From assembly GCA_963755915.1 (NCBI GenBank), contig CAVWLP010000002.1:1120001-1184000 (forward strand): a stretch of 64,000 nucleotides of DNA, read 5' to 3'. Under the pieces are notes generated by a model, which was given only the letters and a program-made list of their open reading frames with translations, was not told the DNA's origin and made no database searches. Origin of the DNA: an uncultured Phycisphaerales bacterium. Its GTDB lineage: Bacteria; Planctomycetota; Phycisphaerae; Tepidisphaerales; Tepidisphaeraceae. Position numbers and translations under genes: made by a program. Positions 24,744-38,532 of the stretch are shown piece after piece; the first letter of the stretch is position 1; each line of letters begins with the position of its first letter.

Positions 24744-27009
24744 ATGGCATCGCAGAATTGGAAAGAAAAGCTCGGAAGTCGTGTCCCCGCAGGGTGGGGG
24801 AAGAGATCGACCTGTTTGAGGCGCAGATCGCGCTTCGGAAGCAGGGGAAAATCGAAGACAAGGTTTTCGCCGAGACGCGCCTGCGGCGCGGGGCGTATGG
24901 GCAGCGGTATGACAATGGGCAGCGGCATGATGGGACCAAGACGCAGAAGCTGCCGTACAGCTCGCTGACCAAGGGGCCGGATACGTACTGGGAAGCGCCG
25001 GGGATGCAACGGATCAAGATTCCCTATGGGGGAATGAATCCGGAGCAGATGATCGTTCTGGCGGAGCTGGCGGAAGAATATGCCGACGCCATCTGCCATA
25101 TCACCACCCGGCAGGACATTCAGCTTCATTTTATAAGCATCGACGACACACCGGATATGTTCCGTAGGCTGGCGGCGGTGGGGATCACCACGCGGGAAGC
25201 CTGCGGAAATTCGGTGCGGAATGTGACGGCCTGCCCACTGGCGGGGGTTTGCAATACGGAGGCGTTTGACGTTACGCCTTATGCGAAGGCGCTGGCGTTT
25301 TATCTGCTGGGGCATCGGGACATCCAGGATTTCGGGCGGAAATTCAAAATCGCCCTTTCGGGTTGCGAGGATGAGGCATGCGCCTGGTTTCGCTGCACGA
25401 CCTGGGCGGGATCGCGGCGACGAAAATCATTGCCGGCAAGACGGTGCGCGGGTTCAAGCTTTATGTGGGCGGCGGGCTGGGGGCGGTGCCGCACCAGGCG
25501 AAATTGTTTGACGAATTCGTGCACGAGGAAGAGTTGCTGCCGCTCTCACGGGCGATTGGGCGCGTGTTTGCCCGGCTGGGGGAGAAGAAGAACCGCAACA
25601 AGGCTCGGTTGAAATTCCTGGTGCATAAGCTGGGGATCGACGAATTCCGCCGGCTGGTCATTGAAGAGCGCAAGACGATGCCGGACGATCCGACCTGGCG
25701 GGAGCATTTTGATCAGATTCCGAAATTTGAGGAGAAGCCGGCACTGGCGGCGGTGCAATTAAACGGCGCGCGGCGGCCGGAGGGATACGACCGGTGGGCG
25801 GCGACGAACCTCTATCAGCAGCGGCAGGCGGGGTATTACGTGGTGACCGTTACCTGCCCGCTGGGGGATTTGACGTCCGACCAGATGCGGGCGCTGGCGG
25901 ATATCTCGCGAAGATATGCCGGCGGTAACGCGCGGACGACCGTGGAGCAGAACATCGTTCTGCGATGGATTCCACATAACAAGACGATCGATCTGTACAA
26001 CGAACTGGCTGCGCTCGGCCTCAATGAGCCCGGCGCGGGAACGATCGTGGATGTCGTCGCTTGCCCGGGCACCGATACGTGCAAGCTCGGGATCGCCTCT
26101 TCGCGCGGATTGGCGGGAGAGCTGCGGCATCGGCTGGCAGCCAAGAGCGCGACGATGGATCGGGCGATTCAGAGTTTACGGATCAAAGTTTCGGGCTGCT
26201 TTAACTCTTGCGGGCAGCACCATGCGGCGGACATTGGGTTTTACGGGAACAGCCGGAATATTAATGGGTATACCGTGCCGCATTTCCAGGTGATGCTTGG
26301 GGGGCAGTGGTCGAAGAACGCCGGGAGCTATGCGCTGGCGATGGGATCGGTGCCTTCGCGGCGGGTGCCGGATCTGGTGGATCGATTGACGAGCCGATAT
26401 ATCAGCGAGCGAAATGGGGAGGAATCTTTCCAGGCCTTCTGCCAGCGGATTGGGAAGCAGGCGCTGAAGGGGATCGTGAACGAGTTCACGGCGGTTCCGC
26501 TGCACAAGGACGATCCGTCGTTTTACAGCGACTGGGGCGACCCGCGGGAATTCACGATCGGAGACATGGGCGTCGGCGAGTGTGCCGGCGAGATCGTTTC
26601 TCTGGCCCAGTTTGGATTCACGCAGGCGGAGGGTGAGGCGTTTGACGCCCAACTCCTGCTGGATGCGGGGAATTATCAGCAGGCGGATGAGAAGGCGTAC
26701 CAGGCGATGGTGACGGCAGCCAAGACGCTCGTGCAGCTTCAATGGCTCGACGTGCCGAATGAGGCGAACCTGATCGTGGAGGAGTTCCGCAAGCGCTTCG
26801 TGGAGCCGAAGATTTTCTGGGATACGTACCATCACGGGCAGTTTGCGAATTACCTGCTGAACCGGCACGAATCGCCGGACACGCGGTATACGAAGGAGAC
26901 GGCGCACAAACTGGTGGAAGAGGCGAATTTGTTTATCGACGCGGCGTATAAATGCCAGGCGAAGATTGAGGCGAGTGCCGCGAGCGCGGTTCAAGTTCCC
27001 ACGACCTGA
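24744..27009 (+). CDS. Siroheme nitrite/sulfite reductase with C-terminal extension; two apparent frameshifts (~24800, ~25382)
   Basis: HITTRQDIQLH, TREACGNSVRNVTACP, ACPGTDTCKLG, VSGCFNSCGQHH. Confidence 0.92.
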
Positions 27010-27015
27010 TAAACC

Positions 27016-27585
27016 ATGGAAGTCTATAAGATAGCTGTGAAGATTTTCGCGGCCGCGGACGATTTCGCGCCGGATCAGTTCGTGCCGATTTTTCAGCGGT
27101 GGATCCAGGAGCAATCTGTCGAGGGGCATCGGCTGATTGACGTGGCGGATTATGGGCATGTGGCCGCGGGGCCGGGGACAGTTCTCGTCAGTTCCGAAGC
27201 GAATTTTTACACCGATCGGGGGGAGAATCGGCTGGGGCTTTTGTATTCGCGGAAGCTGCCGATGGCGGGGACGTTTCAGGAGCGGCTGTGCGCGGCGGTG
27301 AGGGATACGCTGAAGGCCGCGGCGAAACTGGAAGCGGAGCCGGGGCTGAAGGGGAAGCTGAAATTCAAAACGGACGAGTTGGTGATTCGGCTGAACGATC
27401 GATTGCTGGCGCCGCCCAACGAGCAGACGGTGGCCGCGGCCAAGGGGGATATTGAGGCGGTGGCGAAGTCGGTGCTGGGGAACGGTGCGACCGTTGAATC
27501 TCGTGTGACGCCGCTGACGATGGTCGAATTTCGGATTCGCTCGAAAGAGAGCCTGCCGATTTCGGGGTTGCTGACGAAGGTTTAA
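27016..27585 (+). CDS. Conserved hypothetical protein downstream of the reductase
   Basis: IFQRWIQE...LIDVADYGHV..GPG; 6 nt after reductase stop. Confidence 0.8.
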   Translation: MEVYKIAVKIFAAADDFAPDQFVPIFQRWIQEQSVEGHRLIDVADYGHVAAGPGTVLVSSEANFYTDRGENRLGLLYSRKLPMAGTFQERLCAAVRDTLKAAAKLEAEPGLKGKLKFKTDELVIRLNDRLLAPPNEQTVAAAKGDIEAVAKSVLGNGATVESRVTPLTMVEFRIRSKESLPISGLLTKV

Positions 27586-28166
27586 TCGGGGGCAAGAGCT
27601 CGCTCCACGAGCTGTCTGGCATCGGGGGAAAGAGGTAGCTTCAGGGCGGCCTCATGGGCGAGGGGGGACATTTTCTTCCAGGTGCGGCGAAGGATGGTGA
27701 TGATTTTTTCCTCGTCGTGCTTGGGGGCAAAATCGGTGAAATAGTTTTCCAGAAAGACCAGGCAGGCGATGTCCTCGAGCATCTGTGTCTGTGGGTCGGT
27801 CTTCAGTTTTTCTTTTTTCAATAGCGAGCGGACGCGGGCGATGGTGGGCTCGTCGTAGCCGACGGAGCGGAGGATTTCAGCCGCGGTATCGGCGTGGAAG
27901 GTGTAGAGGGCGGTTCGCCACTGGTGGTATCCGGCGCGGGTTATGGGATAGGACGATCTGGGGATGGTCCAGCGGCGGATGTGCTGGGTGCGGGCGGCGA
28001 GATGGAGAGTCTCATCGGCATCCGGATAAAGGCGGGTAAGGCAATCGGTCATGCGGCGAGCGTAGAGAAGTTCGGCGGGGTGGCCGTCAGTTTGGTTTGG
28101 ATCCTGGGCGTTGGCCGCGTCGAAGGCGGCGATGGCGGCGGGGAATTTATCGGATCGATCAGGCAT
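27582..28166 (-). CDS. DUF4202 family protein
   Basis: FDAANAQDPN, ELLYARRM, LAARTQHIRRW, QMLEDIACLVFL, TWKKMS. Confidence 0.88.
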   Translation of the reverse strand: MPDRSDKFPAAIAAFDAANAQDPNQTDGHPAELLYARRMTDCLTRLYPDADETLHLAARTQHIRRWTIPRSSYPITRAGYHQWRTALYTFHADTAAEILRSVGYDEPTIARVRSLLKKEKLKTDPQTQMLEDIACLVFLENYFTDFAPKHDEEKIITILRRTWKKMSPLAHEAALKLPLSPDARQLVERALAPD

Positions 28167-28812
28167 CTGCGACTGGATTATAGGTTTGGGATTTGGCTTT
28201 GCGCTCGTGGAGAATGCTGAGGAAGCTAAAGATCGCGCCGAGAGCGCCGCCGACGTATCCGCCGAGGTGGATGCCGTAGACGGCCATGAAGCGGTGGGGA
28301 CGCCAGAGGTCTGCAGCGGCGAGGTTTTGGAAATCGGGGCTTAGGGAGTTGAGGAGAAATTTGGAGCCGGCGAGGCCGAGGATCAGTGAGGCGACGATGG
28401 CGATGACCAGGACGTGCCACAATCTGATGGCGAGGCGAGTATAGGTCAATTGCGGTCCGCGACGGCCGGGGTTGTTGGCGACGAGCATGACGGCGCCGAT
28501 AACGAGGGCGGCCCACCAACTGGCCTCGGCGCCGATGCGGGCGGCCTGTAGGCCCAGGGCTGCGGGGTCGGGCGGGGTTTGGGGGCCGAGGATGGGGCTG
28601 AGTTCTTTGCCGTAGTAGAAATATTCCCAGGAGATTCGGGAAGTGATCTGGTCGTTGAGCATTCCATATGCGCTGGCGACGGCGACGCAGAGGAGGAGGA
28701 AGAGGTATTCGCGCCAGCGGGTGGATTGGGGGCCTTTCTGGAGGTAATCCGCGATCGCGAGGGCGATGAGGATGGCGAGGCAGATGGAGATGCGCAGGGG
28801 GGAGGAGTTCAT
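28159..28812 (-). CDS. Hypothetical membrane protein
   Basis: YGMLNDQITSRISWEYF, FMAVYGIHLGGYVGG; about 5 hydrophobic helices. Confidence 0.78.
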   Translation of the reverse strand: MNSSPLRISICLAILIALAIADYLQKGPQSTRWREYLFLLLCVAVASAYGMLNDQITSRISWEYFYYGKELSPILGPQTPPDPAALGLQAARIGAEASWWAALVIGAVMLVANNPGRRGPQLTYTRLAIRLWHVLVIAIVASLILGLAGSKFLLNSLSPDFQNLAAADLWRPHRFMAVYGIHLGGYVGGALGAIFSFLSILHERKAKSQTYNPVADA

Positions 28813-28821
28813 TCGTAAACT

Positions 28822-29227
28822 CTAGGGCGACCGGAAAACACCATCTTCCATGGGCTTTTTTGCGCATTGCGACTTGGTGGGTCCCGTTGATGTCCAAAGT
28901 TATGACGGTTGCTCTGCCGATCGGCGTTATTCCTGCGACGATAAAATCGTTCCAGGCAAAGTGCTGGTTCCAGTCGTCCTGGCGGGGATTAAACAGTCTA
29001 ACAAGCTGTTTGGTTTGGGGATCGATGCCGGCGATATTTGGACCCTTGCGGCGATTACAGTCGCCGCATGACAGTGCCAAGTTTTCCGGTACGTCGGTAC
29101 CGCCATGTTGCCTGGCGATAATATGATCAATGCTAAATTTAAGTTTGCTCAGGGATTGAGGCAGGCGGCAATACTCGCATCTATCAGAGGTGCGCCGGCG
29201 AACTTCCTGTTCGATCGCCAAGTTCAT
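28822..29227 (-). CDS. Small HNH endonuclease; homopolymer frameshift near 28858 hides the stop at 28822
   Basis: RCEYC, IDHII..HGG, NLALSCGDCNRRKG, LFNPRQDDW, TPIGRAT. Confidence 0.88.
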
Positions 29228-29234
29228 GCGATCT

Positions 29235-29501
29235 TTATGCAGCGGAGTTGTGCTTCTTGAGCGAAGTGTGCGCCTTGGATTGCAAAACCGAAAGAAAGGC
29301 GTTCAGCGTTAAGAAATCGTCGATTTCATGCTCTTCATCTTTGGTCAGCGTGCCTTCCTGAGACTTTGCGGCAAGCTCGTCATAGCGAGCGTGTTCATCC
29401 GGAGTAAAATCAATCGAAAGTAAGTACTGAGCAAGTTCCTCCGAAAACCCGCCTTGCTGAGGGTCCATGATACGCTCAAGGATGTTCGCTCTCGTTGCCA
29501 C
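29235..29501 (-). CDS. Small helical protein upstream of HNH (candidate antitoxin/partner)
   Basis: 88 aa, acidic, RYDELAAKSQEGTLT..E..E; 7 nt from the HNH start; TAGAAT box 6 nt before GTG. Confidence 0.78.
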   Translation of the reverse strand: MATRANILERIMDPQQGGFSEELAQYLLSIDFTPDEHARYDELAAKSQEGTLTKDEEHEIDDFLTLNAFLSVLQSKAHTSLKKHNSAA

Positions 29502-29554
29502 GATTTCATTCTACCATACGGCAAACTCTCGGCCAGATTTACAGCGGGAGAAAT

Positions 29555-29644
29555 TCACGCCATGACAATGTGGTCGCGTTTACAGGTGACGGCGCGGGTT
29601 GCCCCGCGGGTGTCGATGATCAGCCTGGCACGGTGGGCGATCAT
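29555..29644 (-). pseudogene. Orphan diverged copy of the last 30 codons of the nucleotide-sugar dehydrogenase gene
   Basis: 75/90 nt identical to 30121-30210 by hand alignment; MIAHRARLIIDTRGATRAVTCKRDHIVMA* vs MIADHAKLIIDTRGATRTVTGKRDHIVMA*. Confidence 0.92.
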
Positions 29645-29646
29645 CT

Positions 29647-29985
29647 TCAAGTTGTTGCCGGTGTGCCCGTTGAATGGGGGGCTCTGAAGAGGACGAAACA
29701 GCGGCCTCCGTTGTTAACCATGCTGACCTGAAGGATGGTTCCACGGTGGCTGAAAATCACCGGGAAATCGACCAGGCCGTGCTTGCTGTAGAGATCCATA
29801 TTGTCCGTACCGGCGACGGACTGCATGAGGTTCAGGATGTCGTTGGAGGTGAGTTTTGGGATTTCGAGCTTTCGCATGCGGTCTTCGATGCGCAGGACAG
29901 GCGATTGGCCTGCCAGAAGCCATCCCTCGATGGCGTTACTGTTGAGCATCGTTTCGTAGAATCGTTCGATTTGAAAGTCGGGCAT
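29647..29985 (-). CDS. Stand-alone protein resembling the N-terminal domain of PilT-type ATPases
   Basis: LLAGQSPVLRIEDRMRKLEIPKLT...GLVDF...VSM..NGG...LFR parallels PilT N-domain pattern; no Walker A. Confidence 0.6.
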   Translation of the reverse strand: MPDFQIERFYETMLNSNAIEGWLLAGQSPVLRIEDRMRKLEIPKLTSNDILNLMQSVAGTDNMDLYSKHGLVDFPVIFSHRGTILQVSMVNNGGRCFVLFRAPHSTGTPATT

Positions 29986-30060
29986 AGCAATTATGACGCT
30001 TCCAGGACGTGGATCTTCCACAGATCTCGACGCGTTGTCATCACTTTTGATTCTAGCATA

Positions 30061-30101
30061 GGCCCTCACCCCTACCCTCTCCCAGAGTACTGGGCGAGGG
30101 G
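30061..30101. repeat. REP-like palindrome, CCCTCTCCC family
   Basis: GGCCCTCACCCCTACCCTCTCCCAGAGTACTGGGCGAGGGG; compensatory stem change relative to 2539 copy. Confidence 0.85.
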
Positions 30102-30120
30102 GAAGGAGGGGAAATATTTC

Positions 30121-31431
30121 TCATGCCATCACGATGTGGTCGCGTTTGCCGGTGACGGTGCGGGTTGCGCCGCGGGTGTCAATGATCAATTTTGCGTGGT
30201 CGGCGATCATTTGCCAATCGTAGGCGGAGTGGTGGGTGGCGATGATGACGCAATCGTATTTCGCCAGAGATTCTGCGGTGAGCGGAACGCTGCGCATCTG
30301 GAGGTCGTAGTTGCGCATGCGGTGCGTGGCGGGGACGTGGGGGTCGTTGTATTCCACCGTCGCGCCCAGATGGCTTAGCTTTTCGATCAGCTCGAAGCTG
30401 GGGCTTTCGCGGACGTCGTCGATTTCGGGTTTGTAGGCCAGGCCGAGGATGAGAATGTTGGCGCCTTTGACGGATTTGCCGCGGTCGTTGAGGGCGAGGG
30501 TGGTGCGCTGGACGACGTAGTCGGGCATCTGGTGGTTTATTTCGCCGGCGAGCTCGATGAAGCGGGTGGGCATGCCGACTTCGTAGGCTTTCCAGGTGAG
30601 GTAGAAGGGGTCGATGGGGATGCAGTGGCCGCCGAGGCCGGGGCCGGGGTAGAAGGGCTGGAAGCCGAAGGGCTTGGTGCTGGCGGCGGCGATGACCTGC
30701 CAGATGTCGATGTTCATGGCGGTCAGGACCATCTTCATTTCGTTGACGAGTGCGATGTTGACGGCGCGGTAGATGTTTTCCAGGAGCTTGGCGGCTTCGG
30801 CGACTTCTGCGGAGGCTACCGATATGACGTGTTTGATTGCGTGCTGGTAGAGGGAAACGGCGAGATCGCAGGAGATTTCGTCGATACCGCCGACGAGCTT
30901 GGGGATGGTCTGGGTGGTGGTGTCTTTGCGGCCGGGGTCTTCGCGTTCGGGGGAGAAGGCGAGGAAAAAGTCGGAGCCGCAGTGGAGGCCGCGGGATTCG
31001 AGCTTGGGGAGGACGATCTGGCGGGTGGTGCCGGGATAGGTGGTGGATTCGAGGACGACGAGTTGGCCGGGGCGGAGGCGGCGGGCGATTTCGTCGGCGG
31101 TTTGTTCGATGTAGGTCAGGTCGGGCTCGCGATGGCTGCCGAGGGGCGTGGGGACGCAGATGATGATGGCATCGGCTTCGGGAAGGCGGGAGAACTCGAC
31201 GGTGGCGTCGAATCTGCCGGCGAGTTTCATTTCGCGAACTAAGCCTTCGCCGAGGTGCTTGAGGTAGTTTTCGCCGCGCTTGAGGGCGTCGATCTTGGCG
31301 GGGTCGATGTCGAAGCCGATGACGTGGAATCCGGCGCGGTGGAAGGCGGAGAGGAGGGGGAGTCCGACGTAGCCGAGTCCGATGATGCCGACGCGGGCGG
31401 ATTTGGTGGAGATTTTATCGGAGAGGTTCAT
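30121..31431 (-). CDS. Nucleotide-sugar dehydrogenase (WbpA/WecC-like UDP-HexNAc dehydrogenase)
   Basis: GLGYVGLP, ICVPTP, LESTTYPGTT, FSPEREDPG, GPGLGGHCIPIDP, GLAYKPEIDDVRESP. Confidence 0.93.
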   Translation of the reverse strand: MNLSDKISTKSARVGIIGLGYVGLPLLSAFHRAGFHVIGFDIDPAKIDALKRGENYLKHLGEGLVREMKLAGRFDATVEFSRLPEADAIIICVPTPLGSHREPDLTYIEQTADEIARRLRPGQLVVLESTTYPGTTRQIVLPKLESRGLHCGSDFFLAFSPEREDPGRKDTTTQTIPKLVGGIDEISCDLAVSLYQHAIKHVISVASAEVAEAAKLLENIYRAVNIALVNEMKMVLTAMNIDIWQVIAAASTKPFGFQPFYPGPGLGGHCIPIDPFYLTWKAYEVGMPTRFIELAGEINHQMPDYVVQRTTLALNDRGKSVKGANILILGLAYKPEIDDVRESPSFELIEKLSHLGATVEYNDPHVPATHRMRNYDLQMRSVPLTAESLAKYDCVIIATHHSAYDWQMIADHAKLIIDTRGATRTVTGKRDHIVMA

Positions 31432-31498
31432 GGGGGATGTGGGTGGGGAATTATAATGGCTCGTGTTTCTCGGGCATAGGAAGGCGCCTCGCAGAACG

Positions 31499-31523
31499 CG
31501 CCCCGCAAGCGGGGCCGCTAAAC
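31499..31523. repeat. GTAG/TTAG-tagged REP-like hairpin
   Basis: Minus strand GTTTAGCGGCCCCGC-TT-GCGGGGCG. Confidence 0.7.
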
Positions 31524-31746
31524 TTGGGGATGGGAGCATGATCCGGGGATCCGCGATACTGTTTGGACAGGCGGGAGGGTGTGTTGCGGAGGGGGATGTC
31601 CGAAAATGTCCGAAAGTGCCCGGGATTCGTGCGCGGTTATTTTTCTTCCCTGGGCTGGGTTTGATGATTTGGGCAAGGTCGCAGGAGAAAATGGATCGGG
31701 GATGAGGTGCATCTATATATAGGTCCAAAAGGTGTACGTTTTGTAC

Positions 31747-32181
31747 CTATTTTGGGAAATCGGAGGATTTTATTGAAAAATTATTTGGGGTGGAGGGGCG
31801 AAGGGGATCGTCCTGATTATGCCGGTTTTGAATGTGAATTGACGAATTCATTGTCCGGATCATTCGGCAGTATCTGCTGAATTTTGTTTGGGCGTGCACC
31901 GTCCAAATGCTGATCAGATCTGGATTCTCAACCACCTCGCCGGTCGACCGCAACCGGTATACGCCCGGTTTCGCTTTTTTCAGTGCACTAGTATCGGGAG
32001 GCAGCGAGAAGGTCTGACCATTGCTTTGCCGGATATGAATACCGTCATCGTCAATGTGCGTGATAGTTCCATGGACCTGGAGTTGCTGGATTACATTGCC
32101 GCTGCTATCGAGGTAAGTAACGCCGGCAAGGACGCGCTTGTGGATATATTTGGGGAAGGAGGTTGATTTGTTTTTTCCCAT
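31747..32181 (-). CDS. Hypothetical protein (lower GC); true 3' end uncertain
   Basis: KRVLAGVTYLD...QVHG...LPPD...AKPGVYRLRSTGEVVENPD looks like a folded domain. Confidence 0.65.
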   Translation of the reverse strand: MGKNKSTSFPKYIHKRVLAGVTYLDSSGNVIQQLQVHGTITHIDDDGIHIRQSNGQTFSLPPDTSALKKAKPGVYRLRSTGEVVENPDLISIWTVHAQTKFSRYCRMIRTMNSSIHIQNRHNQDDPLRPSTPNNFSIKSSDFPK

Positions 32182-32235
32182 TTTGGCTCGTGTTTGCCAC
32201 AAACAATACGCTCGACGCCTCGAATGAGGGAACAG

Positions 32236-32457
32236 TCAACTCTGGTTGCTCGAATCCAAAGATGCGAGAAAGCGCGACCCGCACCGGCGACATATAAAGC
32301 GGATGCGGAGGACGGGGTATAGAAGCAGGGCCGAGAGTGTCGTCAGGCACAAGCGCAGCAGGTTTGCGGCGCTAATCTCAACGCGCACGAGATTGCCACT
32401 GCATGATGGGCAGTGTGGTCGATGCAATCGGAATGAGCGAATGGAATTTGTGGGCAT
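32236..32457 (-). CDS. Small protein with split CxxC...CxxC pair around a hydrophobic segment
   Basis: HCPSCSG...LLRLCLTTLSALLLYPVL...ICRRCG. Confidence 0.45.
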   Translation of the reverse strand: MPTNSIRSFRLHRPHCPSCSGNLVRVEISAANLLRLCLTTLSALLLYPVLRIRFICRRCGSRFLASLDSSNQS

Positions 32458-32491
32458 ATGAAAGCGCCGCCTTGCGGCGGCAATTTGGGGG

Positions 32492-32833
32492 CTACTGCCC
32501 GGTGATACCACCAGAGGCGATTTCGACGCTATTGACGCCTGCGGCACGGAATCCACTGCAGATTCGCTGGGCGTCGGAGTAGCTTACGACAACCCCGGCA
32601 TTCCCGCGAATGATGATCGATTGGGGATGGTATTCCTGCACCAGGTTGGGAATGTCCCTGGAGGTGGCATACCAGCCTTCCCAGTTGAAATTGTCCATGC
32701 CGAGGAGATAGACCGTGACCGTCTTTGAGGCACCGGCGTTTGTGGCCGAGGCTGGAGGCGTTCGGTCATTCATGGATGCGCAGGCGGTGGCGAGAAGGAC
32801 TATGCCGAGGGTAAGGGTGAGTGGGGATTTCAT
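32492..32833 (-). CDS. Putative lipoprotein
   Basis: MKSPLTLTLGIVLLATAC signal and lipobox. Confidence 0.65.
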   Translation of the reverse strand: MKSPLTLTLGIVLLATACASMNDRTPPASATNAGASKTVTVYLLGMDNFNWEGWYATSRDIPNLVQEYHPQSIIIRGNAGVVVSYSDAQRICSGFRAAGVNSVEIASGGITGQ

Positions 32834-32855
32834 GCGGTGCTCTCAGGTCGAAGAT

Positions 32856-32903
32856 GCGCCGCACGGTTCGACACGGCTCACCGAATTCAAGTGCGGCGGC
32901 TAC
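32856..32903. repeat. GTAG-type REP with a second element inserted in its loop
   Basis: GCGCCGCAC-[GGTTCGACACGGCTCACCGAATTC]-AAGTGCGGCGGCTAC. Confidence 0.7.
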
Positions 32904-32911
32904 GCGGGGGA

Positions 32912-34167
32912 TTATAGCGAACGGGTGGCTGCGAGGGTTTCTTTGTAAATCTCGATCAGGCGATCGGTTTTCTGCGCCCAGTCGTAGAGATTCGCCTGCA
33001 CGCGCCGGCGGCCGGCCTGGCCCATTTGTTTTCGCAGCGCGGGGTCGCGGGCGAGGCGGAGCATGGCGTCGGCGAAGGCCTGGACGAAGCCTTCGCGGGT
33101 GGTGGGGGGAATCTTGATGCCGGTTTCGTTGGTGACGTGGATGGCGGGGCCGCCCCAGTCGGTGGCGATGACGGGGAGGGCGACGGCCATGGCTTCGAGG
33201 AGGACGATTCCGCCGACTTCGCGGAGGCTGGGCATGACGAAGACATCGGATTGACGGAGATGGCGATTGGCCTGGTCGGCGGTGACCCAGCCGTGGAAGA
33301 TGACGCGGTTCGTCAGGCCCAGGTCTTGGGTCATTTGCTCGAGGAGTTGGCGGCGTTCGCCGTCGCCGAGGAGGTCCAGGACGGCGCTGGACTCCTGTTC
33401 GGCGACAATTTTGAAGGCGGGGATCAGGAATTGGATGCCTTTTACGTCCGCGAGGCGGCCTAAGTAGACGAAATGGATTTTGTCATCGGTGCGCGGGGGG
33501 AGATCGGGGGCTTTGTCCCAAATGGCGAGATCGACGCCGGCGTCGGGGATCTCGTAGATTTTTCCGGTGATGCCCATGGGAAGGGCGTTTTTGCGCGGTC
33601 GTTGGCGACGATGAGTGCGGCGGCTTTTTTCTTGCCGGGCATGAGAGCATTTAGCGGGGCCGAGAGGGCGCGGCCGAAGATTTCGACGGCGGTGGAGCCG
33701 CGGGTTTCGAGGTGTTTGAAGGCGGGGGGGTAGGTCATGCCACCGGCGAGGGGGCCGATGACGACGGGGACGCCCAGGCCGTACATCAGGCTTACCTGCT
33801 TGGGGGAAACGGGGGTCATCTCGTGGACGAGGTCGATTTTGTGATCGGCGATGAGTTTGCGGACGATTTTTTTCTGGAATCTCTGGTTGAAGAGGTGGCG
33901 GACTACGCCAAAGGTTTGGACGTCGATTTTGTCGGGGAACTGGGAGCCGATTTTCCAGAGGAAGCGGTCGATTTTGGTTTCGGGGGAGAAGTGGATGCGG
34001 TCCTGGTCGTTTGGGAAGGCGGCGAGGACTTCGGGGCGGGTGCGGGCGTGGACGACGAGGTGGATGTCGATGCCGCGTTGGCGGAGGTATTTGAAGAAGA
34101 GCCAGGGGAGGCTGGCCTCGCCGCCGAATTTGAGCGAGGCGTTTTGGGCGACGAGGCAGATTTTCAT
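32912..34167 (-). CDS. Glycosyltransferase family 4; apparent frameshift near 33590
   Basis: FGGEA N-terminus; YLGRL..KG, FVMPSLREVGGIVLLEAMA..LPVIATDWGGP. Confidence 0.9.
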
Positions 34168-35446: not shown

Positions 35447-38400
35447 ATGCGTGAAAGTCTTCCCCGATTTGCCCTTCGTCACGCAGTTTCGATCAACTTT
35501 ATCGTCATTGCGCTTTGCGGTGCCGGCGTGTATTCGGCGTTTCATATGCCCTCGGCGCTTTTTCCGCAGACGGAGTTTCCGCGGGTGATCATCATGGTGG
35601 AAAACGGGGTGATGCCGGCGGACGAGATGATGGCCAGCGTGACGCGGCCGATCGAAGAGACGATGAAGCAGATTCCCGGGTGCCAGACTGTGCGGTCGTC
35701 CACCGGGAGGGGGGTGGCGGAAATCGATCTGTTTTTCTCCTGGGACGTCGACATGCGGCAGAGCGAGCTTTACACGCTGGGCAGGCTGTCGCAGATTCGG
35801 CCTGAGCTGCCGGAGACGGTTTCTACGGAAGTTTACCGGATGAACTTTTCGGTTTTTCCGATCATAGGGATCAGCCTGACCGGGTCGGTTCAAAATATGA
35901 CGCAGGCTTGGGAGCTGGCGCGGTATCAACTGAAGCCGGAGCTTTTGCGGATACCCGGGGTGGCGCGGGTGGATTTGGTGGGGGGGCAGGCACCGGAATA
36001 TGCGGTGATTCTGGATCCGCTGCGGATGTCGGCGATGGGGATGGATTTTGCCGCGGTGTGCGATGCGCTGGCGAAAAATAACGCGGTGATTCCATCGGGG
36101 TTTCACCAGGAGGACCATAGTCTTTATCTGACCGTGGTGGACGGGCGGATGCATGATGCGGGGGAATTGGAGGGGATGGTTTTAAGCTCGCCGGGCGGGA
36201 AAATGGGCGGGAAGATTTTTCAATTAAAGGATATCGGGCGGGTCGAGCGCGGGCCTGAACCCGTGTTTGACGTGGTGACGGCCAATGGGTCGGACGCCGT
36301 CCTGCTGAATATTTTTTCGCAGCCGGATGGGAGCACGCTGGATATTGCCAACGAATTGCACCGCGAGCTGGATGCGATTCAGCCTACGCTGCCGGCGGGG
36401 ATGAAGTTGTCGGTGTTTTACGATCAGTCGCTGCTGGTGAAGTCGTCGGTCAAAAGCGTTTGGGATGCGATCATTTTCGGACTCATTTTGGCGGTGGCGA
36501 TTTTGTATCTGTTCCTCTGGGACGCGGGAATGACGCTGGTGGCAACGGCGGTGATTCCGATTACCGTGCTGATCACCATCCTGGGGATGAAGCTGCTGGG
36601 GGAGGGATTTAACCTGATGACGCTGGGGGGAATCGCGGCGGCGATTGGGCTGATTATCGACGATGCGATTGTGGTGGTGGAGGCGATTCATGTGAAGCTG
36701 CTGGCGGGAATGGGCCGGCAGGAGGCGGTGGTCGAGGCGATTGGGGATATCCTGGCTCCGCTGGTGGGGTCGACGATTACACCGGTGGTGGTGTTTATCC
36801 CGCTGGCATTTTTAACCGGAGTTTCGGGTGTTTTCTTCGCGCCCTGGCGATGACGATGGTGATCGGATTGCTGGCGTCGCTGGTGCTGGCGCTGACGATT
36901 ACGCCCTCGCTGGCCAACTGGTTCTTGCACGCGCCAAGCTCAAGGGAGAAGCGCGAGAGCGTCGTGTTTGGGTGGATCACGTCAGTTTACGAATATCTCA
37001 TCAGGCTGGCGCTGCGGCATCGGTGGTTTTTGCTGGGAATGTGCGGATTGGTGTTTGTGGCGGCGTTTGTGCTGTATGGAAAACTCAAAACGGATTTTTT
37101 GCCGCCGATGGATGAAGGGGGATTTATCATCGATTACATCACGCCGCCGGGGACGAGTTTGACGGAAAGCGATCGGCAGATGCGGGTGGCGGAGGGGATT
37201 CTGGCTTCGGTTCCTGAGGTGGAGAGTTATTCGCGGCGGACGGGGACGGCGCTGGGGGTTTCGATCGTGGAGCCGAATACCGGGGATTTTTTGGTGAAGC
37301 TGCGGGATGGTCGAACGCGGACGACCAACCAGGTGATTGCGGAGGTGCGGGAGAAGTTTCGGGAGTCGCTGCCGCGCGTGGACTGGGAATTTCCGGGGAT
37401 TTTGTCGGATCTGATCGGGGATCTGGAGTGGTCGGATGAACCCGTCGAGATCAAGGTTTATTCGACGGACCTGGACGTGCTGAAGAAGGAGGGGCCGGCG
37501 GTTGAGGAGATGCTGGAGAATATTCCGGGAATCGTGGATACGAACAACGGGCTGATTTACACGGGGCCCACGATCAGCCTGCGGGTGAAGGGGGCGGAGG
37601 CGAGGCATTTTGGGCTTACGACGGCGGACATTGGGGATGCCGTGAACACGGCGATGCTGGGGAAAACGAGCTCGACGATTTTGGAGGGAGACCGGATTGT
37701 GGATATCCGCGTGAAGGCCGATCCAACGTCGATCGAGCATGTGGAGGATTTGCGGCGGCTGCCGATTCGGGCTGCGGATGGAACGGTGATTCGGCTGGAC
37801 CAGGTTTGCAATGTGGTCATGGAGCCGGGGCAACTGGAGCTGGAGCGGGATAATCTTCGGCAGAATATTTCGGTGACGGCGCGATTGCAGAACCGCGACC
37901 TGGGGAGCGCGATGCGGGAGGTGAGGAATATTATCGACAACGATCCCTCGCTGCCGCACGATCTGATTGAATATGGGGGCGTTTATCAGCAGCAGCAGGA
38001 GGCGTTCGCGAATCTGCTGGTGGTTTTGGTGACGGCGCTGGCGCTGGTTTTTATTGTGGCGCTCGTTGAGTTTCGCGGGTTCTATGAGCCGATCGCGATT
38101 ATTTTCGGGGCGGCGCTTTCGGTGTTTGGGATCATTCTGGCGGTGCTGATGACGGGGATGACGGTGAATATTGTCACGCTGCTGGGGGCGATTATCGGGA
38201 TGGGGATCGTGCATAAAAATGGGCTGCTGATGCTGGATGCGATCAAGGATTTGCGGGAGAAGGGGGTGGAGCTGGAGCAGGCGATCGTGCAGGCGGGGGC
38301 GAGAAGATTGCGGCCGGTGCTGATGACGTCGCTGGCGGCGGCGCTGGGGATGCTGCCGCTGGCGCTGGGGTTTGGGGCGGCGAATATGCTGAAGCCGCTG

Positions 38401-38532
38401 GCGACGGCGGTGATTGGGGCGGTGTGTGTGTCGGTGATTTTGTCGTTGATTGCGACTCCACTGGCGTATGAGGTTTTGTTGAGGAGATTTTCCCCCGCCC
38501 CCGGTACTCCGGGGGAGGGGGTCGAACGGTGA
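35447..38532 (+). CDS. RND efflux permease (CusA/CzcA-like); apparent frameshift near 36838
   Basis: LFPQTEFP, NLMTLGGIAAAIGLIIDDAIVVVE, FLPPMDEG, RRLRPVLMTSLAA. Confidence 0.93.

Follow-up and report, generated by a model that had tools for sequence, protein, structure and literature searches.

The locus studied here raises a simple question: how did the 3' end of an intact gene come to be present twice, on either side of a small unrelated gene? It lies in a 64-kb window (the whole stretch of DNA that was analyzed) of a 6.6-Mb metagenome-assembled genome of an uncultured Phycisphaerales bacterium, hereafter G000, and comprises udg, which encodes a nucleotide-sugar dehydrogenase of 436 amino acids (aa), a downstream repeat of the udg end, and orfX, the gene between the two. 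We call the 3' end of udg copy A and the downstream repeat copy B; A0 and B0 are the copies of G000, and A1 and B1 those of G001, its closest relative. The other genus members compared at the locus were G002, G003, G004, G006 to G011, and G014, the last being an unpublished genome on which alone no point depends. Unprefixed coordinates are window positions, C2 coordinates refer to the G000 contig, and all genes discussed in the window are on the minus strand. Our comparisons demonstrate the insertion of a foreign gene, a duplicated target, decay of copy B, the lack of a recombinase, and a later homologous exchange, and they make it fairly probable that the locus is the scar of one recombinase-independent insertion.

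Copy A (30121..30210) consists of the last 29 codons of udg and the stop codon, and copy B (29555..29644) starts 566 bp downstream. Read on the minus strand, from 30210 to 30121 and from 29644 to 29555, they are identical at 75 of 90 positions in an ungapped alignment, and a repeat search of the window returned the pair as 111 nucleotides (nt) at 79%. When the 90-mer of the udg end was slid over both window strands, the next best site reached 44/90 (mean, 23.3; standard deviation, 4.7; 127,802 positions), and the whole G000 genome held no third site of at least 55/90. The repeat, its distance, and its end at the stop codon, all of which had been described in a first-pass annotation of this DNA, were thus confirmed by alignment and by the background of window and genome. 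A TGA closes both copies in register. As that annotation had also noted, many of the 15 differences are at third codon positions (nine, against four at first and two at second positions), the stop codon of orfX (29647-29649) sits 2 nt from copy B, and a hairpin of the repetitive extragenic palindromic (REP) type lies between the copies. That the repeat ends exactly at the stop codon is true for ungapped identity. At the other end, the likeness probably extends 21 nt further 5' (to 30231 in A and to 29665 in B), since these nucleotides of B match A, and also the udg end of G003, at 13 of 21 positions. This 5' extension of B overlaps the last codons of orfX, read in a different frame.

An artifact or chimera of the assembly was the first explanation to consider, and it had been named beforehand as what would undo the interpretation. 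G000 does carry frame errors, namely, an extra base at 28856 and split genes for AcrB and sulfite reductase. Both copies are nevertheless bridged by short-read contigs, B with 0 differences (29331-29735) and A with 1 (29823-30730). The contigs come from four runs of one study, which may include the source sample. The same arrangement is found in the independent genome G001, and these two observations together exclude, for all practical purposes, that the structure was created by assembly. Among the contigs of the four runs, in which rare variants are invisible, we found no joint skipping the 566 bp and no circular form, the latter being a junction that the first-pass annotation had proposed to look for.

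The relatives reveal which of the two copies is in the ancestral place. Throughout the genus, udg is followed at some distance by a membrane-protein gene and a gene for a DUF4202 protein, and the gap in between varies. The membrane-protein gene comes directly after udg in five genomes (G010, G004, G007, G006, and G014). In G003 and G008, udg is followed by at88, a gene for an 88-aa protein, and an HNH endonuclease gene, and in G002 by at88 alone. G011 has a spacer of 225 nt without a recognized gene, and in G009 DUF4202 follows udg, with no match to the membrane protein. Of the 11 relatives that have the locus, 10 lack orfX there. In G000, copy B, the spacer behind it, and at88 are colinear, across the stop codon, with the udg end, spacer, and at88 of G003, G008, and G002, and copy B therefore sits at the former place of the gene end. 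These three relatives, which read from udg straight into at88, represent the empty site, and they support the proposal that DNA was inserted behind the gene and left a displaced, nonfunctional udg 3' end in its ancestral context. Judged from this alignment, the new material is copy A, the REP, and orfX or, equivalently, orfX between the copies of a duplicated target. G001 instead reads udg, orfX, a shortened copy B, and the membrane-protein gene; B1 retains the first 40 to 42 nt and is followed by 82 unrelated nt. G000 and G001 are alike over the whole of orfX and on across its junction with copy B, which argues for a single origin of the insertion.

According to a further proposal of the first-pass annotation, the copies had already diverged when they came together, each having been a functional allele in a different strain. 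Copy B, however, groups with A0 and A1: it differs from A1 at 12 positions per 90 nt, from A0 at 15, and from the gene ends of other genus members at 20 to 29, and it carries the lineage-derived states ATR.VT.KRD, where the other members have AMRHVTGRRD. For comparison, A0 differs from the G001 gene end at 8 of 90 positions and from those of G008, G003, G002, and G010 at 13 to 14. Over the 40 nt present in all four copies, we counted five private changes in B0, three each in B1 and A0, and one in A1, and no shared change. This star pattern indicates that A and B were alike at the G000/G001 node. The B copies have since moved further apart than the A copies (8/40 versus 4/40). Counted from the inferred ancestor of A0, A1, and B0, the B0 branch is the longest, with 10 changes (6 synonymous and 4 nonsynonymous), compared to 5 in A0 (4 synonymous and 1 nonsynonymous) and 3 in A1 (2 synonymous and the third in the stop codon). 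One of the B0 changes replaces by cysteine a glycine that is invariant in 12 of 12 gene copies, and three of the five private B0 changes in the 40-nt stretch are nonsynonymous. These counts fit an origin of copy B within the G000/G001 lineage, as a duplicate of the lineage's own sequence that is now decaying, and they do not support prior divergence as alleles of different strains. Comparing the two kinds of changes between the copies, as had been suggested, gave a divided result, in that the length of the B branch speaks for decay and its synonymous bias of 6 to 4 leaves some constraint possible (P = 0.013 to 0.03).

Copies that were alike at the node, one of which decays faster, would also be expected if the udg end had been duplicated locally in tandem and orfX had been inserted separately later. 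This would require two events at one spot, and the duplication without orfX occurs in none of the 11 relatives. Moreover, the reading frame of orfX extends into the 5' edge of B, which ties the cargo closely to the junction in both G000 and G001. We therefore regard a tandem duplication as quite unlikely. A decayed duplicate of the full udg gene was also considered and rejected: the best local score in the orfX region was 18, with a shuffle maximum of 19.5, and for the 60 nt upstream of the copies the score was reached by 51 of 500 shuffles.

The gene to which copy A belongs has a composite history. udg (30121..31431) is intact, with the N-terminal, central, and C-terminal UDPG_MGDP_dh domains of Pfam, and it scores 428.7 bits against NCBIfam TIGR03026 (cut-off, 189.8); no equivalog model was reached. 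At the protein level, it is 94.7% identical to its G001 counterpart and 78 to 86% identical to those of the ten other genus members. The synonymous divergence (pS) between G000 and G001 rises from 0.153 in nt 1 to 990 to 0.433 in nt 991 to 1308, a 2.8-fold jump (Fisher P = 2.2e-6), while the nonsynonymous divergence (pN) is flat (0.027 and 0.032). In windows of 90 nt, the two genes show 2 to 8 differences in 10 of the 11 windows up to nt 990 (14 in the remaining one) and then 11, 14, and 11, which places an approximate breakpoint at gene nt 990 ± 45 (30441). The pS of the last 318 nt is as deep as that of either genome versus G003 (0.46 to 0.56), and that of orfX is 0.284, compared to 0.141 for the membrane-protein gene. 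Thus, a stretch that begins near nt 990 of udg, includes orfX, and reaches copy B has a separate history.

G000 and G001 stay sisters in the trees of both udg parts. The terminal branch of G001 lengthens from 0.032 in the 5' tree to 0.12 in the 3' tree and that of G000 from 0.034 to 0.055, making G001 the likelier recipient of a later exchange. The pS jump indicates that homologous recombination has carried the cassette and the adjoining udg end from one lineage to another on at least one occasion, probably into G001. This is in good agreement with the earlier suggestion that DNA carrying its own dehydrogenase 3' end moved at this locus.

An alternative in which much of the difference between A and B is allelic has to be weighed at this point. 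In such a scenario, an ancestor of G000 with an empty site would have received a udg 3' end, orfX, and an old copy B from another lineage by homologous recombination, the right-hand crossover lying inside B, and the present B would be what was left of its own functional gene end. The breakpoint in udg demonstrates that 3' ends move with the cassette, the synonymous excess on the B branch would be explained, and the retention of at88-HNH behind B in G000, but not in G001, fits an entry into different haplotypes. On the other hand, B is nearer to no other lineage's allele than to A0 and A1, no changes are shared in the 40 nt, the three nonsynonymous changes among the five private to B0 in that stretch arose after the node, and the long branch in the 3' tree is that of G001, not that of G000. 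We consider such a displacement possible, with the odds clearly against it. Of the interpretation given in the first-pass annotation, the insertion, the displaced copy, the missing recombinase, and the movement of the 3' end therefore stand, and the divergence of the copies before they met does not.

The cargo, orfX (29647..29985), encodes 112 aa and corresponds to a stand-alone N-terminal domain of PilT. By BLASTP, it matches residues 5 to 106 of G000's own 418-aa T2SSE/PilT protein (E = 1e-10; 27% identity). The AlphaFold model has a predicted local distance difference test (pLDDT) score of 87.1 and aligns by Foldseek with the PilT chains 6okv, 3jvu, and 5zfq (E about 1e-6; template-modeling score, 0.80; root mean square deviation, 1.4 Å over 97 to 99 columns). 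Only the tail is disordered (residues 106 to 112, pLDDT below 50), and this is the part encoded, in another frame, by the 5' edge of the B region. The Pfam T2SSE model was not reached, and there is no Walker-type ATPase domain, as orfX ends at residue 112 and scores 19.4 bits against pilT_fam (cut-off, 319) over profile positions 2 to 79. The protein thus resembles the N-terminal domain of the PilT/PilU retraction ATPases of type IV pili in sequence and predicted fold but lacks their ATPase domain and is much shorter (112 aa versus about 350 to 420 aa).

A ratio of nonsynonymous to synonymous substitution rates of 0.18 versus G001 indicates that orfX is under purifying selection. The gene is present in 2 of 13 genomes of the genus, and its GC skew (0.14 to 0.19) is atypical compared to that of the flanking genes (0.28 to 0.47). 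Taken together, these three features argue that orfX is a real foreign gene. As a selected, stand-alone PilT N-terminal domain, the modeled protein is a candidate modulator of pilus motors. Six metagenomic clusters of orfX relatives were found at 69 to 89% identity, and the high-identity relatives found are all short and stand-alone. Metagenome scans for the DNA context of the relatives P0004 to P0008 (69 to 89%) gave 212 pattern matches, none of which was confirmed, and no match to a degenerate pattern; the scan of the genome collection returned only G001. Stand-alone orfX-like genes of G104 (39%) and G022 (34%) were rejected as a donor context because neither is beside a dehydrogenase gene.

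No recombinase accompanies orfX. The frames of at least 30 aa listed between 27.5 and 32.5 kb include no integrase- or transposase-sized candidate, the long ones being DUF4202, the membrane protein, HNH, orfX, udg, and unnamed frames of 151, 113, and 189 aa. Pfam searches of 6 and 23 proteins out to 15 kb on either side detected no integrase or transposase, and none was found at the G001 locus. No inverted repeats bracketing 29555-30210 were among the 10 pairs reported. The annotation of a unit of about 0.5 kb without a recombinase was therefore accurate, and the likeness to integrative elements at tRNA genes that it had drawn holds for the form only. A transposon or insertion sequence with target-site duplication was rejected, as there are neither a transposase nor terminal inverted repeats, and the duplications vary from 90 to 160 nt across this and three similar scars in G000 (see below). 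A diversity-generating retroelement was rejected as well: no reverse transcriptase occurs in the scanned frames, and at the 15 mismatches copy B has C, G, or T, never A, although such retroelements alter only adenines of the template repeat.

The closest known architecture is that of the cryptic prophage e14 in Escherichia coli K-12, which is bordered by two copies of the icd 3' end: one upstream, by which the gene is completed, and one downstream, the pseudogene icdC. Recombination between them restores one gene (PMC13626634). Like e14 and phage 21 in icd, the G000 locus has a gene 3' end as a direct repeat whose downstream copy is a displaced C-terminal fragment. However, e14 is 15 kb long and has its own site-specific recombination system, whereas the G000 unit measures 0.57 kb and holds one gene and no recombinase. 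In addition, the icd end of e14 is element-borne, whereas A and B were alike at the deepest node open to reconstruction. One could still imagine that an integrase island or prophage with an attachment site in the udg 3' end was later reduced to orfX, leaving attL/attR-like repeats and a remnant that would be mobilizable in cis. The icd-e14-icdC arrangement and the empty site in relatives both speak for this, and the direct repeat of the target 3' end is indeed what an integrase-borne element leaves behind. Yet no recombinase exists at the locus in G000 or G001, the unit is already reduced to orfX in both genomes, and the three other scars show no evident attachment site in common. As to a foreign gene end brought by such an element, A and B can both be assigned to the G000/G001 lineage and did not differ at the node in the 40 nt, although the synonymous bias of B leaves some room. 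We thus regard an eroded element as unlikely. We read the locus as an insertion scar whose general kind is known but whose form, a miniature without a recombinase, is unusual.

Gene 3' ends repeated within 5 kb downstream, a pattern that the first-pass annotation had proposed to look for, do occur elsewhere in G000. Among 297 pairs of direct repeats at most 5 kb apart, filtering left 24 isolated two-copy pairs, and 4 of these, including the udg locus, consist of a gene 3' end and an orphan copy downstream. In the other three, the last 97 to 160 nt of a gene are repeated 0.8 to 2 kb downstream with a foreign-looking gene in between; the genes and sequences are unrelated, and no common attachment site is evident. 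In the first (C2:946480-946639 and 944495-944636), a 217-aa gene ends in 160 nt that have a counterpart of 142 nt 1985 bp downstream, aligned with an 18-nt gap and 97% identical over a 108-nt ungapped core. Both copies end at the stop codon, and a 512-aa PEP-CTERM gene lies between them on the other strand, an arrangement also present in G001. The four copies of the two genomes are unusually similar (13 to 25 differences in about 160 to 180 nt), which would be expected under constraint on, or gene conversion of, the orphan copy. Neither the gene, the PEP-CTERM gene, nor the orphan copy had a match at the locus in the other genus members searched.

The second (C2:1112401-1112505 and 1114300-1114404), about 6 to 8 kb before the start of the window, repeats the last 105 nt of a 274-aa gene at 88%, 1.9 kb downstream and behind a membrane-protein gene. 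G001 has both copies; between the two genomes, the gene-attached copies are 91.7% identical and the orphan copies 82.5%, compared to 73% for the gene body and 86% for the insert. The third (C2:4212662-4212758 and 4211835-4211931) repeats 97 nt or more at 90%, covering the end of a membrane-transporter-like gene and about 35 to 55 nt downstream. Its insert of about 650 nt contains a small AT-rich membrane open reading frame (ORF), and G001 has an empty site of only 188 nt. The orphan copy has three states in common with the outgroup G002 that are missing from the gene copy and from G001.

A REP hairpin directly follows the gene-attached copy in two of the four scars, at the udg locus and at C2 ~4212600-4212660, and the two REPs belong to different families. 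Such hairpins may take part in the joining or may simply favor gene ends. That at the udg locus (30060..30114; CCCTCTCCC ... GGGAGAGGG type) starts 9 nt past the udg stop codon and has a fold energy of -31.1 kcal/mol. Its family has 121 blastn matches in G000, 4 of them in the window, and many copies in relatives. G001 has a half-copy at the same place (19/21, reached by 0 of 200 shuffles), which is all that can be aligned between the udg-orfX spacers of the two genomes. Beyond the REP, local alignments of the A-side spacer point weakly to what may be left of an at88 promoter (-10 TAGAAT) and gene start (30032..30058, minus strand), with a 20/27 match to the corresponding G003 sequence. The z scores of the motif (3.4 for the B side of G000, 3.5 for G003, 3.7 for G002, and 1.7 for G008) are not significant alone. 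A repeat that extends past the stop codon to this 27- to 28-nt match at a promoter-like motif is a faint possibility that we do not claim.

How could such a duplication arise without a recombinase? We propose that the insertion dates from an ancestor shared by G000 and its nearest relatives, at a time when this lineage had already separated from the clade of G003, G008, G002, and G010, and that it entered a chromosome with the order udg, small gene, HNH, and membrane protein. A short foreign DNA with one gene, orfX, would have been joined into the udg end, such that the insert came to be flanked on either side by the last 90 to 111 nt of udg, perhaps together with the spacer. Of the two, copy A upstream completes udg and remains under selection, while copy B, at the old place of the gene end, decays. 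Later, the cassette and the adjoining last third of udg were exchanged between related lineages by homologous recombination, and G001 lost the right-hand end of B. Two routes to the flanking duplication both fit: the foreign DNA may have been captured at a staggered break, or the incoming molecule may already have carried a piece of the target and entered by a single or one-sided homologous crossover.

For the first route, a precedent is offered by Sinorhizobium meliloti, in which Ku/LigD-dependent nonhomologous end joining captures heterologous DNA at breaks, with deletions at the junctions; the word "duplication" is missing from its main text (PMC6379672). As in that system, foreign DNA would have been integrated without homology or recombinase, and G000 encodes Ku (146.6 bits). 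A 90-nt flanking duplication would, in contrast, need a staggered break. The second route resembles Campbell-type insertion-duplication, the single crossover of a circle with a short chromosomal segment, which is known as a laboratory outcome. It yields segment, insert, and segment, with initially identical copies and with RecA only, and DNA of the carrier can then transform an empty site via the two flanking copies. The difference is that there is no evident natural circle with 90 to 110 nt of udg and orfX, and no such form was among the contigs.

The locus also recalls arrays built by homology-facilitated illegitimate recombination. In the displacement model for orphan immunity genes of the Vibrio cholerae type VI secretion system and for orphan Rhs and contact-dependent inhibition tips, new DNA enters behind a conserved gene, and a remnant of the displaced gene end persists downstream (PMC5361080). 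Here, too, a conserved gene serves as an anchor, with new DNA behind it and the old end moved downstream. The pS jump at unchanged pN reveals that the stretch of separate ancestry extends from within udg into the cassette, so that the heterologous DNA adjoins a homologous anchor whose history differs from that of the rest of the gene. However, those arrays consist of toxin/immunity modules and variable C termini, whereas here the gene end is conserved and the cargo unrelated to the anchor. With regard to natural competence of the host, the searches covered PilT and Ku.

Several observations weigh against a single recombinase-independent insertion. The step that would have created the duplication is deduced and was not observed. 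The spacer on the A side has turned over between G000 and G001, which makes the left junction unreadable. At the far end, B stops after 40 to 42 nt in G001, and no clean microhomology could be read at the junction beyond the 13/21 stretch at the 5' edge of B. The star pattern covers 40 nt only and could be mimicked by gene conversion. Random substitution would give 7.2 to 7.5 nonsynonymous changes in 10, and B0 has only 4 [P(≤4) = 0.013 to 0.03], suggesting, as far as ten changes can, that B may for some time have been constrained as a coding sequence. Finally, the enrichment of 3' ends is modest: a downstream match restricted to the 3' end was found for 19 of 3,590 ORF-defined genes, compared to 8, 11, 4, 12, and 8 in five control classes, and these are raw counts with paralogues included, several of the 19 lying in neighboring paralogues.

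Whatever its origin, the repeat pair may itself matter. As both flanks of orfX are homologous to one conserved gene end, orfX would be portable by RecA-driven recombination into any relative, whatever lies downstream. It is conceivable, albeit doubtful on present comparisons, that the pair thereby makes orfX a recombinase-free gene cassette with RecA-driven entry and clean removal. If true, this would explain why the last third of udg and orfX together have a history of their own, why the downstream neighbors differ between G000 and G001, and why the pattern recurs at three or more other genes of G000. The gain of single genes is usually ascribed to integrases, transposases, or double crossovers in conserved flanks. 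At this locus, which has three look-alikes in G000, a small foreign gene was placed at the end of a resident gene with no dedicated enzyme, and the duplications measure 90 to 160 nt. Should the duplication supply homology arms, accessory genes would have a simple route into variable spots without common downstream synteny. Genome annotators can take from this that orphan copies of gene 3' ends point to old insertion sites and help to date them.

The genes behind copy B complete the picture of the locus. at88 (29235..29501), first gene of an older variable cassette, encodes a protein of unknown family; its counterparts encoded immediately behind udg (G003, G008, and G002) are 65 to 71% identical, and no Pfam or NCBIfam family scored above its cut-off. 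Its partner, as in G003 and G008, is the HNH endonuclease gene (28826..29227; Pfam HNH, E = 2.2e-13). At 28856, the contigs of two runs (X1 and X3) are one base shorter than the assembly, and a one-base assembly error there probably disturbs the HNH frame, which continues into a nonsense tail and makes up an ORF of 333 aa. The split frames of AcrB (35447-38532) and sulfite reductase (24758-27009) suggest further single-base errors. Next comes the 217-aa membrane protein (28159..28812), the conserved right neighbor of the variable spot, with the DUF4202 gene downstream of it.

Regarding composition, the plus strand is G rich throughout 26000-33000 (GC skew, 0.2 to 0.47) regardless of gene direction. 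The skew thus follows the replication strand rather than coding and offers a way to recognize DNA that G000 acquired recently. Resident genes have 57 to 68% GC and a skew of 0.28 to 0.47, while 28800-29500 (at88-HNH) and 31600-32300 (upstream of udg) have 43 to 53% GC and almost no skew. The region at ~31850-32830, upstream of udg, has no counterpart at the G001 locus, and this, together with the atypical at88-HNH cassette, indicates that udg has variable spots on both sides.

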